Shown one piece after another: positions 375 through 26,074 of a stretch of 32,000 bases of DNA. The first letter of the stretch is position 1. Every line of letters starts with the position of its first letter. The stretch is from Buchnera aphidicola (Neophyllaphis podocarpi). GTDB lineage: Bacteria > Pseudomonadota > Gammaproteobacteria > Enterobacterales > Enterobacteriaceae. Both the position numbers and the translations under genes were made by a program. The notes beneath the pieces are model-generated. The model was not told where the DNA came from and made no database searches. It worked only from the letters and a program-made list of their open reading frames with translations. The stretch lies in assembly GCF_964059055.1 (NCBI RefSeq), contig NZ_OZ060386.1, positions 510,001 to 542,000 of the forward strand, written 5' to 3'.

Positions 375-935
375 ATGCTAATATTAATTTTATTCAGTAA
401 AAAAATAATTGACATATACATTATGATAATAATACTACGTATATGGATCAATTTATTAAATAATGATTTACATGATAATTTGTCTAAATTTATAATAAAA
501 GCAACAGAACCTCTTATAAATTTAATTAATAAATTAAGTATAAGTAAAAATACTAATTACATAAATATATATTTAATATTGATATCTTTAGTAATAACAA
601 CAATAAAAAATTCTATTATTATGTTCGTAAGTACCGGATATTTTTATATAAATCCAATAAACTTAATTGTAAATATAGCTTCATTATTAAAATTAATAGG
701 TAATTTAATATTTTACTTAATAATAACACGTTCATTTATTAGTTTTATTAAACAAGAGTATAGTAGCATAAACTACTTATTAGTAAAGTTAACAGATCCT
801 TTAATATTACCAATCAAAAGAATAATTCCAGATGTAGGTAATCTAGATTTTGCACCAACAATACTAATAATATTTCTATATTTATTAAATTTTTTAGGAA
901 ATATAATTTTTTTTAAAATATGGAATTTTATATAA
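375..935 (+). CDS. yggT: YggT-family integral membrane protein
   Basis: 186 aa with multiple hydrophobic segments. The N-terminal IIDIYIMIIILRIW...LSKFIIKATEPLI resembles E. coli YggT (VIELYTMVLLLRIW...FSQFVVKVTQPII). It sits directly after yggS. Confidence 0.85.
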   Translation: MLILILFSKKIIDIYIMIIILRIWINLLNNDLHDNLSKFIIKATEPLINLINKLSISKNTNYINIYLILISLVITTIKNSIIMFVSTGYFYINPINLIVNIASLLKLIGNLIFYLIITRSFISFIKQEYSSINYLLVKLTDPLILPIKRIIPDVGNLDFAPTILIIFLYLLNFLGNIIFFKIWNFI

Positions 936-5441: not shown

Positions 5442-6164
5442 ATGAATTTATTAATAAAAAGAAATAAAAACATACGCCCGATTAAATTTATAAAAAACTA
5501 TATTAAATTCAATAAAAGCTCGGTATTAATAGAATCAGGAAATACTAAAGTAATATGCAATGCATCAATAGAAAAAAAAATTCCTAAATTTTTAAAAAAT
5601 AAAAAATCAGGATGGTTAAGAGCAGAATACAGCATGTTACCTTATTCAACAAGTATAAGAAATAATAGAGAAATATTTAAAGGTAAACAAAGCGGAAGAA
5701 CTATAGAAATACAAAGATTAATATCTAGAATACTAAGAATGTCTATTGATTTAAAAAAATTAGATAACAAATCTACTATAGTAGTAGATTGTGATGTAAT
5801 ACAAGCTGATGGAGGTACAAGAACAGCTTCAGTAAATGGATCTTCAGTAGCTTTATATATTTTATTAAAAGAACTATATACTCAAAAAAAAATAGAAAAA
5901 AATCCATTTAAAAATTTAGTCGCAGGTATTTCAATTGGAAAAAAAAATAATAAACTATTCTGTGATATGAATTATAAAGAAGATTCATCAACAGAAATAG
6001 ATGTAAATATATTTATGAATGAAAAAAAAGAAATAATTGAAATTCAAGGAACTTCAGAAAAAAAACCTATATCTAAGAAAAATTTTTTTCATATATTAGA
6101 ATTAGCAGAAAAAAATATTCCTTTGATTCTAAATGCTCAAAAAAAAATATTAGAAAAAATATAA
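5442..6164 (+). CDS. rph: Ribonuclease PH
   Basis: 240 aa, collinear with E. coli Rph. Conserved blocks: RPIKFIKNY..GSVLIESGNTKVICNASIE, GWLRAEYSMLP, GRTIEIQRLISR, DCDVIQADGGTRTASVNGSSVAL. Confidence 0.94.
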   Translation: MNLLIKRNKNIRPIKFIKNYIKFNKSSVLIESGNTKVICNASIEKKIPKFLKNKKSGWLRAEYSMLPYSTSIRNNREIFKGKQSGRTIEIQRLISRILRMSIDLKKLDNKSTIVVDCDVIQADGGTRTASVNGSSVALYILLKELYTQKKIEKNPFKNLVAGISIGKKNNKLFCDMNYKEDSSTEIDVNIFMNEKKEIIEIQGTSEKKPISKKNFFHILELAEKNIPLILNAQKKILEKI

Positions 6165-22972: not shown

Positions 22973-23054
22973 ATTTTAATTAAAATTTTATATTGAAAAT
23001 AGTTTAATTTTTATATACAATAATAATTATTAATATATTTATTTAAAAAAGTTA

Positions 23055-23127
23055 GCGGGAATAGCTCAGTTGGCAGAGCGCAACCTTGCCAAGGTTGAGG
23101 TCACGAGTTCAAACCTCGTTTCCCGCT
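23055..23127 (+). tRNA. tRNA-Gly (anticodon GCC)
   Basis: The sequence is GCGGGAATAGCTCAGTTGGCAGAGCGCAACCTTGCCAAGGTTGAGGTCACGAGTTCAAACCTCGTTTCCCGCT. The cloverleaf has loop TT-GCC-AA and is close to E. coli glyV/X/Y. No CCA is encoded. Confidence 0.95.
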
Positions 23128-23340
23128 CAATTAAATAAATTAATTTAAACTTTTTACAAAATTGAATTCTTAAACTAAAAAAATTAATTTTAAAAATTTT
23201 AGAAAATATCATATTAAAAATAAAGAATTAAAAACATATCGAAAAAAACTTAAAAATTAATATTTTAAATTAAAATGTTATTCAAAAAATAATAAATCAT
23301 TCACATAAAAAATAATAAATTTTATGCTCAGTATTTAAAA

Positions 23341-23431
23341 ATATAATTAATATTAAGATCGAGTATTTATCTTTTATTTGAATTTTCTATTCAAATAAAA
23401 GATAAATACTCGATCTTAATATTAATTATAT
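23341..23431. repeat. Perfect inverted repeat: 43-bp arms (23341-23383 and 23389-23431) around a 5-nt loop TTTCT
   Basis: I checked it base by base. All 43 positions pair, including the G/C-containing core AAGATCGAGTA / TACTCGATCTT. It lies between the convergent 3' ends of tRNA-Gly (+) and rpmE (-). Confidence 0.95.
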
Positions 23432-23504
23432 AATTATTTACTATTATATATTAATTTTTATATAATAAATAAAATAATAATTTAGAATTTGATAAATTTA
23501 AATT

Positions 23505-23708
23505 TTATAAAAATTTAAATTTTTTATTAAACTTTTCAACTCTCCCTTTATTATCTAATACACGTTGTTTTCCAGTATAAAATGGATGACATTTTGAACA
23601 AACATCTATATTTATATTACTAGAAATAGTAGAAAATATTTTTATAATATTTCCGCAGGAACATTTAGCTTTTACTGAAATATATTTAGGATGTATATTT
23701 TTTCTCAT
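23505..23708 (-). CDS. rpmE: 50S ribosomal protein L31 (zinc-ribbon type)
   Basis: 67 aa. [14 protein letters not shown] and [13 protein letters not shown] give the four-Cys form. GAGGA lies upstream of the ATG. Confidence 0.96.
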
Positions 23709-23940
23709 AATAATTCCTCGTAGAGATTGAAAAATTTCTTTTAAAAATATATATATAATTGTTAATAATATTATATTTATGTTATAAATGATAAAATAAC
23801 ATTATATTATTTAAGTACATGTATTTAATAACATTATTAATTATACCAAATAAAAGAGAATATAAAGTTGCAAAAAGATTATATAATTAAAATATCAAAA
23901 ATAAAAAATAAAAAAAAAGATTAAATCTTATATATCTAGA

Positions 23941-24156
23941 ATGAATATTTGCATTATAGCAATTGTTATTATAATTCTAATAAGTATAATGTATTATTCT
24001 TCATATAATAAAAAAATAAAGAAAAATAAAGAAAAAATACAAAATAAATTAAATAATACTATACCACCAAAACCAATAAACAAATGGAAATATATTGAAG
24101 AACTAAACAAAATAGATGTCTATTATAAAAATATAGATAAAATTAATAAAAAATGA
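23941..24156 (+). CDS. ftsN: Miniature FtsN-like protein: one TM helix plus the essential-domain (EFtsN) motif, with no cytoplasmic tail, Gln-rich linker or SPOR domain
   Basis: 71 aa. Residues 2-19 (NICIIAIVIIILISIMYY) are hydrophobic. Residues 41-57, IPPKPINKWKYIEELNK, align with E. coli FtsN 75-91, LPPKPEERWRYIKELES. The ORF sits immediately upstream of hslV on the same strand, which is the ancestral ftsN position. CCA CCA AAA CCA and TGG codons are preserved despite the A+T bias. Confidence 0.65.
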   Translation: MNICIIAIVIIILISIMYYSSYNKKIKKNKEKIQNKLNNTIPPKPINKWKYIEELNKIDVYYKNIDKINKK

Positions 24157-24200: not shown

Positions 24201-24731
24201 GTGACAACAATATTAAGTATACGCCGTAATAAAAAAGTAGTTATTGGTGGTGATGGACAAGCTACTTTAGGTAATACTATAATGAAAAGTAGTGTGAATA
24301 AAATTAGATCTTTATGTAATGATAAAGTAATAGCAGGTTTTGCTGGAAGTACAGCAGATGCATTTACATTATTCGAGCTTTTTGAAAAAAAGTTAAGTAT
24401 GTATCAAGGGCAATTACAACGTTCAGCAATTGAATTAGCCAAAGACTGGAGAACGGACAGAATTTTAAGAAGACTAGAAGCTTTATTAGCTGTTGCAGAT
24501 AAAAAAATTTCACTGATAATATCAGGAAATGGAGATGTAATACAACCTGAAAACGATTTGATAGCAATAGGATCAGGCGGTCCTTATGCTCAATCTTCTG
24601 CAAAAGCTTTAATAGAAAATACTAAAATGAATGCTAAAAACATTGTAATAAAATCATTAGAAATAGCAGCAAGTATTTGTATATATACAAATAATAATTT
24701 TACCATTAAAGAATTAGCTTCAGAAAAGTAA
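24201..24731 (+). CDS. hslV: ATP-dependent protease subunit HslV (GTG start)
   Basis: 176 aa. (M)TTILSIRR provides the N-terminal Thr nucleophile. [42 protein letters not shown] and GSGGPYAQS are near-identical to E. coli HslV. AAAGGA lies upstream of the start. Confidence 0.96.
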
Positions 24732-24742
24732 GGATTATAAAA

Positions 24743-26074
24743 ATGTCTGAAATGACTCCTGGAGAAATTGTCATAGAACTTAATAAATTTATTATAGGTC
24801 AAGAAAAAGCAAAAAAAGCAGTGGCAATTGCATTAAGAAATAGATGGAGAAGAATGCAATTAGAAGAAAATTTAAGAAATGAAATAACTCCTAAAAATAT
24901 TTTAATGATAGGACCTACTGGTGTAGGAAAAACAGAAATAGCAAGAAGATTAGCTAAATTAGCTAATGCTCCTTTTATAAAAGTAGAAGCAACTAAGTTT
25001 ACAGAAGTAGGATATGTAGGTAAAGAAGTAGATTCTATCATTAGAGATTTAACAGATGTAGCAATTAAGATTGTTAGAGTTCAAATTATCGAAAAAAACA
25101 AAAACTCTGTAACAGAAAGAGCTGAAGATAGGATATTAGATGTATTAATTCCTACTCCAAAAAATGATTGGGGTAAATCAGATAAAATTAAAGAACCTAA
25201 AGCAACAATTCAATCTTTTAGAAAAAAATTGAGAGAAGGTAAACTTGATAATAAAGATATTGAAATAAATGTTTCTGCTGTACCTATAGGAGTAGAAATT
25301 ATGGCTCCTCCAGGAATGGAAGAAATGACAAGTCAATTACAATCTCTATTCCAAAATTTAGGAGGTAATAAAAAAACAATAAGAAAATTAAAAATTAAAG
25401 ATGCTATGAAAATATTAATCGAAGAAGAAGCAATTAAACTTGTTAATCCAGAAGAACTTAAAAGAGCAGCGATAAATTCAGTAGAACAAAATGGTATAGT
25501 TTTTATTGATGAAATAGATAAAATTTGTAAAAGAAATTATTCCAATTCTACTGATGTATCAAGAGAAGGAGTTCAAAGAGATTTATTGCCTCTTGTTGAA
25601 GGTTGTACAGTATCAACTAAACATGGATTAGTTAAAACAGATCATATATTATTCATTGCATCAGGTGCTTTTCAAATATGTACGCCTTCTGATTTAATTC
25701 CTGAATTACAAGGAAGATTACCTATAAGAGTTGAATTAGAAGCATTAACTGTAAACGATTTTGAAAGAATTTTGACTGAACCAAATGCTTCTATTACAGT
25801 TCAATATAAAGCATTAATAGCAACAGAGGGAGTAAAAATTAATTTTACAGAAGATGGAATAAAAAAAATAGCTGAATCTGCATGGAAAGTTAATGAAAAT
25901 ATGGAAAATATAGGAGCAAGAAGATTATACACAATTTTAGAGAAGCTAATGGAAAACATATCATTTAACGCAAATGAACTAGTAAATAAAAATGTAGTAA
26001 TAGATTCTGGTTATGTAAGTAAACATTTAGATAAATTAGTATCTGATGAAGACGTAAGTAAATTCATTTTATAG
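24743..26074 (+). CDS. hslU: ATP-dependent protease ATPase subunit HslU
   Basis: 443 aa. [37 protein letters not shown] and the Walker A block [37 protein letters not shown] are present. [10 protein letters not shown] is the Walker B motif. Confidence 0.97.

Follow-up and report, generated by a model that had tools for sequence, protein, structure and literature searches.

A shrunken ftsN interrupted by a poly(A) tract upstream of hslV in Buchnera aphidicola of a Neophyllaphis aphid

The interval between rpmE and hslV

What lies upstream of hslV in this Buchnera? In the window, as we call the whole 32,000-nt stretch of DNA analysed here, an ATG-started ORF of 71 codons occupies positions 23941..24156 of the plus strand, stop included; the coordinates and translation given in the preliminary description match the sequence exactly, as judged from the ORF list and from direct translation. 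The synteny described there also holds: the ORF sits between rpmE on one side and hslV, on its own strand, on the other, as in E. coli. The window reads rpmE(-) / ORF(+) hslV hslU, and the order in E. coli K-12 is rpmE / priA cytR ftsN hslV hslU. The rpmE product is 100% identical to the Buchnera 50S ribosomal protein L31. The features that make up the downstream part of the locus are as follows.

23505..23708, minus strand: rpmE (L31), divergent upstream neighbour and marker of the ancestral locus (ORF list)
23920..24156, plus strand: downstream-frame segment of the candidate gene (mini-ftsN), consisting of IKSYISR and the ORF 23941-24156 including its stop
23941..23997, plus strand: predicted transmembrane (TM) anchor MNICIIAIVIIILISIMYY (Kyte-Doolittle; aligns with residues 37-54, the TM helix, of E. 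coli FtsN)
24061..24111, plus strand: EFtsN motif IPPKPINKWKYIEELNK, W49/Y51/L55 corresponding to E. coli W83/Y85/L89 (alignments, HMMs)
24201..26074, plus strand: hslV-hslU, same-strand downstream neighbours (ORF list)

hslV (24201-24731, GTG start) begins 45 nt past the mini-ftsN stop codon and is followed by hslU (24743-26074); a scan for terminator-like sites between mini-ftsN and hslV-hslU returned none. Scanning for promoters and terminators was uninformative in DNA of 22% GC (9 promoter sites vs 7.0 expected), and none of ftsI, ftsW, ftsL and ftsB lies within the window.

The hydrophobic stretch begins at ORF residue 1-2, in line with the TM helix reported from residue 2, and its best 19-residue Kyte-Doolittle window has a mean of 2.62, compared with 2.40 for the TM helix of E. 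coli FtsN. The motif spans ORF residues 41-57 with W49, Y51 and L55 where they had been placed, and residues 75-91 of E. coli K-12 FtsN, as used for the comparison, do read LPPKPEERWRYIKELES. In the ORF, the motif reads IPPKPINKWKYIEEL; it fits the EFtsN consensus (W/Y/L/F)x(Y/F/L)hxxL, which binds FtsL and FtsI (bioRxiv 10.1101/2023.05.12.540521), has PPKP ahead of it and lies ~20 residues past the TM helix. The product ends 16 residues after the L89 equivalent. Automatic annotation (PGAP) starts the ORF at ATG 23941 and labels it 'hypothetical protein'. Whether it already carried the name ftsN had been posed as a question, and in one public record it does: CAL4325756.1, a manually annotated entry probably from the same genome, is a 'Cell division protein FtsN' of 97 aa.

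Relationship to FtsN, conservation and distribution

By its sequence, the ORF is a drastically shrunken, genuine remnant of an ftsN ortholog at the ancestral locus, the identity originally proposed for it; profile matches, BLASTP, a purpose-built HMM tested against a null set, hhalign and synteny all support this. BLASTP aligned ORF residues 3-56 without gaps to residues 37-90 of E. coli FtsN (33% identity, pairwise E=3e-12). The two best NCBIfam matches of the 71-aa ORF are FtsN models (E=3.3e-7 and 7.4e-5). These models also rank first for the proteins of 85 aa from A. pisum Buchnera and 81 aa from Protaphis Buchnera, and for the 97-aa product, whose alignment (E=9.5e-9) starts at profile position 4 or 19 and reaches about 90-96. 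The curated family cut-offs were missed (35.2 bits vs 525 for NF008179, 27.5 vs 107.65 for TIGR02223), as is expected of a fragment that leaves two-thirds of the family model without a counterpart.

An hslV-anchored contig scan yielded 80 loci, 72 of them, mostly from free-living Enterobacterales, with a full-length ftsN upstream of hslV; only three were from Buchnera, because HslV is so conserved that other loci filled the scan. From these other loci we built an FtsN HMM (69 free-living Enterobacterales FtsN N-termini) and applied it to a null set of 2,328 composition-matched six-frame ORFs from AT-rich symbiont loci. Its sole matches were four syntenic ORFs at 46, 46, 36 and 29 bits, the window ORF scoring 46 and the next best ORF 8. 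A second HMM, restricted to the 28-residue EFtsN region and leaving out the TM helix, still set the syntenic ORFs apart (28, 23.5, 23.5 and 16 bits, against 6.9 for the best other ORF). Alignment of three Buchnera sequences with 11 free-living FtsN N-termini by hhalign gave a probability of 97.8% (E=9.7e-13). Sensitive profile comparison by NCBIfam, our own HMMs and hhalign thus recovers similarity to the essential region of FtsN. The Gln-rich linker and the SPOR domain are both absent, as had been noted: Pfam contains no match to SPOR (PF05036) at E<=10, returning weak TM-type matches only, and hslV follows after 45 nt. With the ORF as query, phmmer searched 1.84 billion representative proteins and retrieved only the sister ortholog and no FtsN proper, the single 71-aa query being too distant for database-wide significance, and a sequence search of the PDB gave no relevant match.

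Is the sequence under selection? Between the window and Buchnera CP135039, codons 2-69 differ by 5 synonymous and 2 nonsynonymous changes, corresponding to a pN/pS of 0.09 (binomial p=0.003; 7 substitutions in total), compared with 0.05, 0.11 and 0.28 for the neighbouring genes hslU, orn and psd. The EFtsN motif itself shows 0 nonsynonymous changes and 1 synonymous change between sister genomes (AAA to AAG in PPKP), such that the sister spacers leave the encoded motif intact. Over a longer range, in an alignment of E. coli, Arsenophonus and three Buchnera lineages, P76, W83, Y85, I86 and L89 never vary; outside these residues, protein identity across those lineages is just 23-26%. The Neophyllaphis and Aphidinae Buchnera lineages parted close to the root of the aphid tree. 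Pro and Trp codons are retained in a genome of 22% GC. The suspected selection on the motif is therefore purifying, both between sister genomes and over the deep splits within Buchnera, and this conservation suggests that mini-ftsN is functional.

One correction to the first reading is that mini-ftsN is not confined to this genome but occurs in other Buchnera lineages as well. Aphidinae Buchnera carry versions of 81-85 codons whose tail/TM junction also has a poly(A) tract (A11 or A12) and which end 3-4 residues past L89 (A. pisum motif peptide, e.g., NDVLPPKPKEKW). The spacers of seven other Buchnera lineages gave no significant ftsN match, one of them, from a Pemphigus-like Buchnera, holding decayed remains of the gene with TAG for TGG at the Trp codon; Buchnera of Pemphigus are without the peptidoglycan pathway (PMC9116674), and Aphidinae Buchnera keep ftsL, ftsB, ftsI and ftsW, though not ftsQ (PMC10591338). 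A word-indexed profile search with two Buchnera mini-FtsN queries returned A. pisum and Neophyllaphis proteins only, which implies that gene callers miss or split mini-ftsN elsewhere; automated calls reduce it to a 'hypothetical protein' of 52-71 aa. Scanning metagenomes for the pattern PPKPxxKWKYI added just one A. pisum Buchnera contig. The gene was probably short already in the Buchnera ancestor; it survives in Aphidinae and Neophyllaphis Buchnera and has been deleted or has decayed in other lineages, for example in the Pemphigus-like one.

A probable cytoplasmic tail and the A9 tract

The FtsA-binding cytoplasmic tail had been listed among the missing parts. We find a basic, tail-like segment encoded upstream in another frame, across a tract of nine adenines, so that the tail is probably still present in mini-ftsN, judging from the features below.

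23853..23858, plus strand: Shine-Dalgarno-like AAAGAG, a weak candidate 9 nt ahead of the TTG (read from sequence)
23868..23918, plus strand: putative cytoplasmic-tail segment, upstream frame, TTG start, M-QKDYIIKISKIKNKKK (CAL4325756.1 residues 1-19)
23910..23918, plus strand: A9 homopolymer at the tail/TM junction, A9 in three Neophyllaphis-Buchnera sequences

The upstream segment, MQKDYIIKISKIKNKKK, is a basic stretch of 17-19 codons beginning M(KL)QKDY, compared with MAQRDY in E. coli, and the full six-frame translation of the window has Q[RK]DY at this site alone. CAL4325756.1 starts two codons before the TTG, at ATA 23862; its residues 1-19 are the upstream tail frame and the whole protein is this frame joined to the ORF, and its CDS accordingly appears, from the protein sequence, to bridge the A9 tract. 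With the tail, the product scores 48.7 bits against the FtsN HMM, compared with 40.4 when the tail is left out. A tail-only HMM gave no score, the homology of the tail consisting of QKDY and a basic patch. The Aphidinae orthologs of A. pisum and Protaphis Buchnera carry tails too, in which the DY is not kept.

Read straight through, the tail frame stops at TAA 23922-23924; it joins the ORF frame with one A fewer (A8) or two more. The tract is A9 in 3/3 Neophyllaphis-Buchnera sequences (the window, CP135042 and CP135039). The same junction has A11 in Protaphis Buchnera, where the gene is frameshifted and the CDS of the record spans 247 nt for 81 aa, and either A12 (in frame) or A11 (out of frame) in two A. 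pisum Buchnera assemblies. An assembly error can be ruled out, A9 being found in the window, CP135042 and CP135039, with the window differing from both. A -1 ribosomal frameshift of the dnaX type (A-AAA-AAG) can likewise be dismissed because the shift needed is +1 or -2.

Two observations concern where the product begins. The 89 nt upstream of the ATG (23852-23940), which include AAAGAG, are shared unchanged by the window and its two sister genomes, with 0 differences vs 11 in the other 143 nt of the spacer (Fisher p=0.008). Moreover, the ATG-started ORF is intact in CP135042, and ATG 23941 is CTA in CP135039, so a TM-bearing product there can only start upstream. A TM helix that starts at residue 2 is therefore a product of the frameshift. 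In the 97-aa model, the helix is flanked by charges of +10/-1 on the N side vs +6/-1 on the C side; the 71-aa form has no N-flank charge, and the predicted N-in orientation is favoured only when the tail is present.

Interpretation and comparison with known systems

What does the locus encode? We think it fairly probable that the ORF makes up the 3' four-fifths of a minimal, A9-interrupted ftsN in the Buchnera aphidicola of a Neophyllaphis aphid. Such a gene would have ~95 codons, starting with TTG 23868 and running through the basic tail into the A9 tract, beyond which the sequence would continue one base out of frame with linker IKSYISR, one TM helix, ~21 Lys-rich residues, the EFtsN motif and 14 more residues. 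By homology to E. coli, tail and TM helix would insert mini-FtsN N-in/C-out, a topology that would put the EFtsN helix in the periplasm; there, its W, Y and L may dock at the FtsL(AWI)-FtsI interface and activate FtsW-FtsI for septal peptidoglycan synthesis. The long linker, like the SPOR/denuded-glycan feedback, has presumably been discarded. A full-length product would require either an mRNA one A shorter, arising by transcriptional slippage, or a +1 ribosomal shift, and in this genome ATG 23941 could also yield a tail-less product of 71 aa. Orthology, motif conservation and the frameshift architecture can be read directly from the sequences; from these we infer expression, topology and activity of mini-FtsN.

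Several observations run against the reading we favour. The A9 tract breaks the frame in each of the three Neophyllaphis-Buchnera sequences, and the frame is likewise broken in Protaphis Buchnera, just as it would be in an early pseudogene. The Shine-Dalgarno-like sequence is weak, the tail resembles that of FtsN in QKDY and a basic patch, with a DY that Aphidinae do not keep, and the selection test has 7 substitutions to draw on. Frame repair would need -1 (or +2), unlike the commoner +1 insertions: in a survey of Buchnera transcriptomes, homopolymer slippage consisted mainly of +1 insertions and no restored reading frame was seen (PMC5574713).

Might the locus hold a truncated, frameshifted ftsN that is non-functional and decays slowly, its motif persisting by chance or short divergence? 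The poly(A) frameshift in Neophyllaphis and Protaphis Buchnera, the loss of the start codon in CP135039, the loss or decay of the gene in most sampled lineages and its scoring as absent from 53 Buchnera genomes in reviews would fit; yet the motif residues have stayed unchanged between the Buchnera of Neophyllaphis and those of Aphidinae while the flanking protein has diverged to 23-26% identity, the pN/pS of 0.09 resembles that of bona fide neighbouring genes, clearly dead copies are unrecognisable or carry TGG to TAG, and the Pro and Trp codons persist at 22% GC. We regard a pseudogene as unlikely. A little less likely again, in our view, is the model of the preliminary description, a stand-alone 71-aa protein from ATG 23941 with TM helix and EFtsN, no tail and FtsA coupling lost, so that just the periplasmic trigger would be left. 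PGAP annotates the ORF from this ATG, the window and CP135042 both carry the ORF intact from its ATG, and EFtsN exported to the periplasm suffices in E. coli when overproduced (PMC5013485; 10.1101/2020.06.05.136150). Against this model, CP135039 has CTA for ATG with the TM codons before the next ATG open and nearly unchanged, the 89 nt upstream are invariant and hold a QKDY/basic tail-like segment with its own start, Aphidinae orthologs have tails, and, if the N flank carries no charge, the Lys-rich stretch that follows the helix (+6/-1) would favour the wrong orientation, placing EFtsN in the cytoplasm.

That an AT-rich spacer has produced an ORF whose hydrophobic, Lys-rich composition mimics FtsN would explain why Pfam matches are weak and TM-type and why phmmer against 1.84 billion representatives returns only the sister ortholog. 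It is refuted by the composition-matched null, with its 38-bit gap to the best non-syntenic ORF, by deep motif conservation and by the hhalign probability of 97.8%; the TM-free EFtsN HMM still matches and the Buchnera of A. pisum and Protaphis have orthologs in synteny, leaving chance a negligible probability.

A bolder extension of the A9-interrupted gene, which we consider quite improbable, is that the poly(A) at the tail/TM junction acts as a conserved, slippage-dependent throttle on the dose of the division trigger. A9 to A12 would have been kept at the same codon position in lineages that split near the base of the aphid radiation, and only a minor transcript fraction, with one A lost, would encode a correctly oriented mini-FtsN. 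If true, polymerase infidelity would set the dose of the trigger and hence symbiont proliferation in bacteriocytes, the A11 vs A12 polymorphism in A. pisum Buchnera would be a heritable on/off or dose switch, and Buchnera would offer a natural FtsN working without SPOR, FtsQ or FtsK.

What follows for Buchnera cell division? The absence of ftsN is stated in PMC5013485, PMC4350177 and a 2023 review of 53 genomes, and such surveys, including the review and the 2015 genome paper, infer another trigger of septal-wall synthesis in obligate intracellular bacteria. At the sequence level, the Buchnera of at least Aphidinae and Neophyllaphis retain the part of FtsN that is sufficient in E. coli deletion analysis, which corrects the inventory of the Buchnera divisome. 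They may serve to study how FtsN acts alongside FtsL and FtsB where FtsQ is absent. FtsLB by itself is able to stimulate FtsW (bioRxiv 10.1101/2023.05.12.540521). In addition, mini-ftsN may mark which Buchnera lineages have retained the peptidoglycan machinery.

The Buchnera gene corresponds to the N-terminal third, cytoFtsN - TM - EFtsN (L75-Q93), of E. coli FtsN (b3933, 319 aa; NF008179 / TIGR02223). Both lie directly upstream of hslVU with rpmE beyond, the order of basic tail, single TM helix (tail and helix being predicted in Buchnera), ~20-residue spacer and PPKPxxxWxYIxxL is the same, W83, Y85 and L89 are invariant and the start codon, in Buchnera the proposed one, is non-ATG in either case. 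Unlike E. coli FtsN, the Buchnera versions have 81-97 residues, no Gln-rich linker and no SPOR domain; their putative tail is shorter, with a D5/Y6-like DY clear in Neophyllaphis only, and a poly(A) tract breaks their reading frame. Buchnera also has fewer partner proteins, FtsQ, FtsK, ZipA and FtsEX being reported absent (PMC10591338). L75-Q93 is sufficient in vivo in E. coli (10.1101/2020.06.05.136150); the Aphidinae versions end near this experimental minimum, and because they stop 3-4 residues past L89 they suggest a natural boundary for minimal EFtsN.

Trimming of FtsN to its essential N-terminal part has been published for other symbionts, which makes the Buchnera case an extension and a correction. 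A shrunken ftsN was described in Serratia symbiotica SCc/STs by Manzano-Marin & Latorre (2016), who connected it with the deletion result for FtsN(1-119) of E. coli (PMC5013485), and in stink-bug symbionts, with 170 aa in Ishikawaella and a 129-codon N-terminal part in 'Ca. Pantoea carbekii' (Kenyon et al. 2015, PMC4350177). The notion that reductive evolution has arrived at a minimal FtsN hence stands as to anatomy, TM helix and EFtsN being kept, and falls as to novelty. Like these host-restricted Enterobacterales symbionts, Buchnera has kept the essential N-terminal part and lost SPOR; it differs in genus and in the poly(A) frameshift, and its versions are shorter than the sizes reported by Kenyon et al.

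Poly(A)-disrupted genes are themselves familiar from Buchnera, where rescue by slippage was proposed (Tamas et al. 2008, as relayed in PMC3164680) and has been surveyed (PMC5574713). As in those genes, the break in mini-ftsN falls inside an A9-A12 run with conserved ORF parts on either side, and tract length differs between assemblies from the same host (A11 vs A12). Unlike in those genes, rescue would proceed by -1 or +2 rather than by the commoner +1 insertion. The position of the mini-ftsN tract, at the tail/TM junction, is common to deeply diverged lineages.

An ftsN orthologue between rpmE and hslV

Is the 71-codon frame upstream of hslV a remnant of ftsN? We confirmed the ORF and its previously quoted translation, and the FtsN sequence given in the preliminary description (residues 75–91, LPPKPEERWRYIKELES) matches the E. 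coli K-12 record retrieved for comparison, in which the gene order is rpmE / priA cytR ftsN hslV hslU.

Features of the rpmE-hslV interval and its flanks
23505-23708, minus strand: rpmE, on one side of the ORF
23902-23904, plus strand: TAA after which the ORF frame opens
23910-23918, plus strand: A9 tract, the sole overlap of the tail and ORF frames
23922-23924, plus strand: TAA stop of the upstream (tail) frame, read straight
23941-24156, plus strand: ORF, 71 codons, ATG start
24201-26074, plus strand: hslV-hslU, on the other side of the ORF

BLASTP aligned FtsN 37–90 with ORF residues 3–56 without a gap (33% identity, pairwise E=3e-12), a span running with identical spacing from the TM helix through the motif of EFtsN, the short essential periplasmic peptide of FtsN. 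The best two NCBIfam matches were FtsN equivalog models (E=3.3e-7 and 7.4e-5), with scores far below the whole-protein cut-offs, which a fragment would not be expected to reach. A Pfam scan of the product returned nothing meaningful and no SPOR domain, the latter as previously described. Because the ORF encodes hydrophobic residues and then Lys-rich sequence, in a genome of 22% GC, a composition-matched control was built. From ftsN of 72 Enterobacterales loci recovered with hslV, we derived one HMM for the tail-TM-EFtsN part (69 distinct sequences) and another for the 28-residue EFtsN region alone, and ran both against every six-frame ORF of 20 aa or longer in the window and in 12 AT-rich symbiont loci (2,328 in all). 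The former matched only four ORFs, each of them in the syntenic spacer (46, 46, 36 and 29 bits, against 8 bits for the runner-up), and the TM-free model separated the same four (28, 23.5, 23.5 and 16 bits, against 6.9). With hhalign, three Buchnera sequences matched 11 free-living FtsN N-termini at 97.8% probability (E=9.7e-13, 54 columns). This separation, together with the hhalign result, makes orthology to ftsN secure. The proposed identity, with the EFtsN motif retained, holds.

The 71-aa product has the same sequence as RJV68_02600, a 'hypothetical protein' from Buchnera aphidicola (Neophyllaphis varicolor), and at the counterpart position the sister genome CP135039 (labelled N. podocarpi) carries a 56-aa 'hypothetical protein', a PGAP call without the TM helix. 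Among the results of an exact-sequence cluster look-up was CAL4325756.1, a 97-aa 'Cell division protein FtsN' from Buchnera aphidicola (Neophyllaphis podocarpi), whose residues 27–97 are the ORF product; the same assembly has an L31 protein to which the window's RpmE is 100% identical. The gene in the window has probably, therefore, already been named ftsN by one annotator. As a side observation, the host labels of two sequencing projects seem to disagree: 'N. podocarpi' protein records match the window at 100%, whereas CP135039, also labelled 'N. podocarpi', is only 95% identical to the window, and CP135042, labelled 'N. varicolor', is 99.3% identical to it (33 differing positions and 2 indels in 5.2 kb).

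A probable cytoplasmic tail in a second frame

According to the preliminary description, the cytoplasmic tail of FtsN was missing. This is probably wrong: residues 1–19 of CAL4325756.1 (MKLQKDYIIKISKIKNKKK) are encoded by 23862-23918, in a frame one base behind the ORF, and that record joins the two. Dropping one A from the A9 tract fuses the frames to give NKKK-IKSYISR-MNIC. A conventional start is available at TTG 23868, with AAAGAG 9 nt before it, yielding MQKDY as compared to MAQRDY in E. coli. Q[RK]DY occurs once in the six-frame translation of the whole window, namely in the tail segment, and with the tail included the HMM score rose to 48.7 bits, against 40.4 without it (NCBIfam E-value 9.5e-9).

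Two readings of the gene have to be weighed, a stand-alone 71-aa ORF and a longer gene comprising the tail segment and the ORF frame (mini-ftsN). In CP135039, CTA takes the place of the ORF's ATG, yet all 16 TM codons up to the following ATG stay open, with one synonymous change only. Upstream of the ATG, an 89-nt block (23852-23940) is invariant in the window and both sister genomes, whereas the remaining 143 nt of the spacer show 11 differences to CP135039 (Fisher p=0.008 for the contrast). With the tail, the charges flanking the helix are +10/-1 on the N side and +6/-1 on the C side, an arrangement shared with E. coli FtsN; for a tail-less protein, the positive-inside rule predicts that EFtsN would lie in the cytoplasm. 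Given the CTA codon, the invariant block, the unique Q[RK]DY, the flank charges and recurrence in other Buchnera, these sequence comparisons favour the longer, tail-bearing gene. Runs of 9-10 A or T occur 28 times in the 32-kb window, and those at 5572-5580, 5884-5892, 5939-5947 and 6139-6147 lie inside rph. Since several such runs stand in frame inside intact genes, the A9 tract alone is no pseudogene marker here.

Distribution and selection of mini-ftsN

Syntenic Buchnera loci were retrieved with RpmE homologues as handles. Contrary to its presumed uniqueness to this genome, mini-ftsN is also present in Buchnera of A. pisum and Protaphis terricola. In A. pisum Buchnera (APS), an 85-aa gene annotated 'hypothetical' lies between hslV and rpmE (MYNDKYKINSAYFNKKTKKIKKKNK-LTCICFILMSTLIFIVYLNI-...-LPPKPKEKWKYIEKLENS-stop), with an in-frame A12 tract at the junction of tail and TM helix (L086:2819-2830). 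A second A. pisum Buchnera contig, otherwise identical over 341 nt, has A11 (L091:3084-3094), so that the frame is broken and what remains is the 52-aa call seen in RefSeq-type records; in strain TLW03 the call is 103 aa long and takes its N-terminus from an alternative frame. The A11/A12 difference is either a real polymorphism or a homopolymer assembly error. The Protaphis gene reads MYKNQNQISSMSFKRKKK, an A11 frameshift, then IKFSKFNLFSILMIVIISLFFFNLFF...LLPDIPKEKWKYIKKLKNL-stop; its record gives a CDS of 247 nt for 81 residues and was thus annotated across the frameshift.

W83, Y85 and L89 are the critical residues of E. coli FtsN. Overall identity of the Buchnera proteins to E. coli FtsN is only 23–26%; M1, K24, I48, K58, P76, W83, Y85, I86 and L89 are invariant in a five-way alignment that includes E. 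coli and Arsenophonus.

Across rpmE-hslV spacers of Buchnera, the motif is kept in Neophyllaphis and Aphidinae, and several other lineages have none or a relic. In Buchnera from Pemphigus, Tetraneura, Taiwanaphis, Anoecia and Kurisakia, and in a relative (L083/L084), the spacer gave no significant match. The Buchnera sp. MAG SMAG_U13190 (L015:628-1353, plus strand), whose HslV and RpmE resemble Pemphigus Buchnera counterparts, contains a clear decayed relic, with MIKKDYILYKSKK in one frame and, in another, a TM-like stretch followed by ...PNKIEKY*QYIKRLEN; its TAG stands precisely where Trp83 is encoded, a TGG-to-TAG change of the kind expected from AT-biased decay. In Baizongia pistaciae Buchnera (str. 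Bp, L092:1597-2500, minus strand), a spacer ORF with a basic patch and a TM helix (TKKKITKIVIIFIIFLLFTLCIKLIL...LLKKPQEQYFFFKKY) scored a non-significant 5.4 bits against the FtsN HMM, and may be a degenerate copy in which EFtsN changed W to Y, Y to F and L89 to Y. In Hormaphis cornu Buchnera (L089:2243-2398; 643-kb genome) the locus is rearranged, with a UvrD/Rep-type helicase gene as the neighbour of rpmE in place of hslVU, and a run of N (assembly gap) alongside.

Beyond Buchnera, priA abuts hslV in Lightella (L070), so ftsN and cytR have been deleted; Westeberhardia (L068) has no ftsN upstream of hslV. In Arsenophonus and Sodalis symbionts (L023, L080), ftsN is kept at about 250 aa, its linkers shortened. 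The four, taken together, suggest a graded reduction of ftsN.

Selection on the motif between sister genomes was borne out. Window and CP135039 differ at 5 synonymous and 2 nonsynonymous positions in ORF codons 2–69 (pN/pS 0.09, binomial p=0.003), and by one synonymous change and zero replacements in the 17-residue EFtsN motif. This pN/pS falls within the range of neighbouring genes (hslV 0.02, hslU 0.05, orn 0.11, fpr 0.14, rpmE 0.23, psd 0.28). The phylogenetic pattern offers the stronger argument: the motif is common to Neophyllaphis and Aphidinae Buchnera, and lineages released from constraint have nothing, or the TGG-to-TAG relic, at the ftsN position.

Divisome context and reduced ftsN genes elsewhere

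What could mini-FtsN do? By homology to E. coli FtsN, it would be a bitopic N-in/C-out anchor presenting a short periplasmic helix. FtsN L75-Q93 is sufficient in E. coli (10.1101/2020.06.05.136150). Genetics and AF2 models put EFtsN, with the consensus (W/Y/L/F)x(Y/F/L)hxxL, on the FtsL(AWI)-FtsI interface, and FtsW is stimulated in vitro by FtsLB alone, without FtsQ (10.1101/2023.05.12.540521). The Buchnera proteins satisfy this consensus, and the Aphidinae versions end 3–4 residues after L89. Aphidinae Buchnera keep ftsL, ftsB, ftsI and ftsW and are without ftsQ, ftsK, zipA and ftsEX (PMC10591338), while Pemphigus Buchnera are without the peptidoglycan pathway (PMC9116674); these inventories fit a link of mini-ftsN to septal wall synthesis. 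Loss of SPOR would remove denuded-glycan feedback. Consistent with this, amiB, which adjoins rpmE in A. pisum, Protaphis and Baizongia Buchnera loci, is absent from the window: the orn-rpmE interval (22973-23504), which elsewhere holds this amidase gene (Amidase_3), has only tRNA-Gly(GCC) at 23055-23128. The window's gene content is otherwise housekeeping only (hemW, trmB, sbcB, rph, dut, rplI, rpsF, rnr, purA, hflKC, miaA, mtlAD, pgi, psd, orn, epmA, coaD and rsmJ). A 186-aa ORF at 375-935 (plus strand) matched no NCBIfam family at E<=1e-10, unlike all other large window ORFs tested.

The weakest link is expression. To make the full-length product, either a transcript with A8 or a +1 shift by the ribosome would be needed. 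Rescue by poly(A) slippage was demonstrated for another Buchnera gene (as cited in PMC3164680). For mini-ftsN we only infer it, because in a transcriptome-wide survey most insertions were +1 and no frame was restored (PMC5574713). On the sequence evidence, we consider a functional mini-FtsN plausible, with the balance tilting modestly in its favour.

A 2023 review listed ftsN in 0/53 Buchnera genomes and concluded that no obligate intracellular bacterium covered encodes an FtsN homologue (PMC10591338); Buchnera mini-ftsN corrects this inventory. The principle of ftsN shrinkage is already known, and the Buchnera gene itself is already recognised in at least one database annotation. In Serratia symbiotica SCc/STs, ftsN has shrunk to its essential N-terminal part, which was tied to the E. 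coli FtsN(1-119) result (PMC5013485), and truncated ftsN occurs in Ishikawaella and 'Ca. Pantoea carbekii' (PMC4350177). Buchnera shows the same trimming of ftsN as these symbionts, yet carried beyond the reported sizes.
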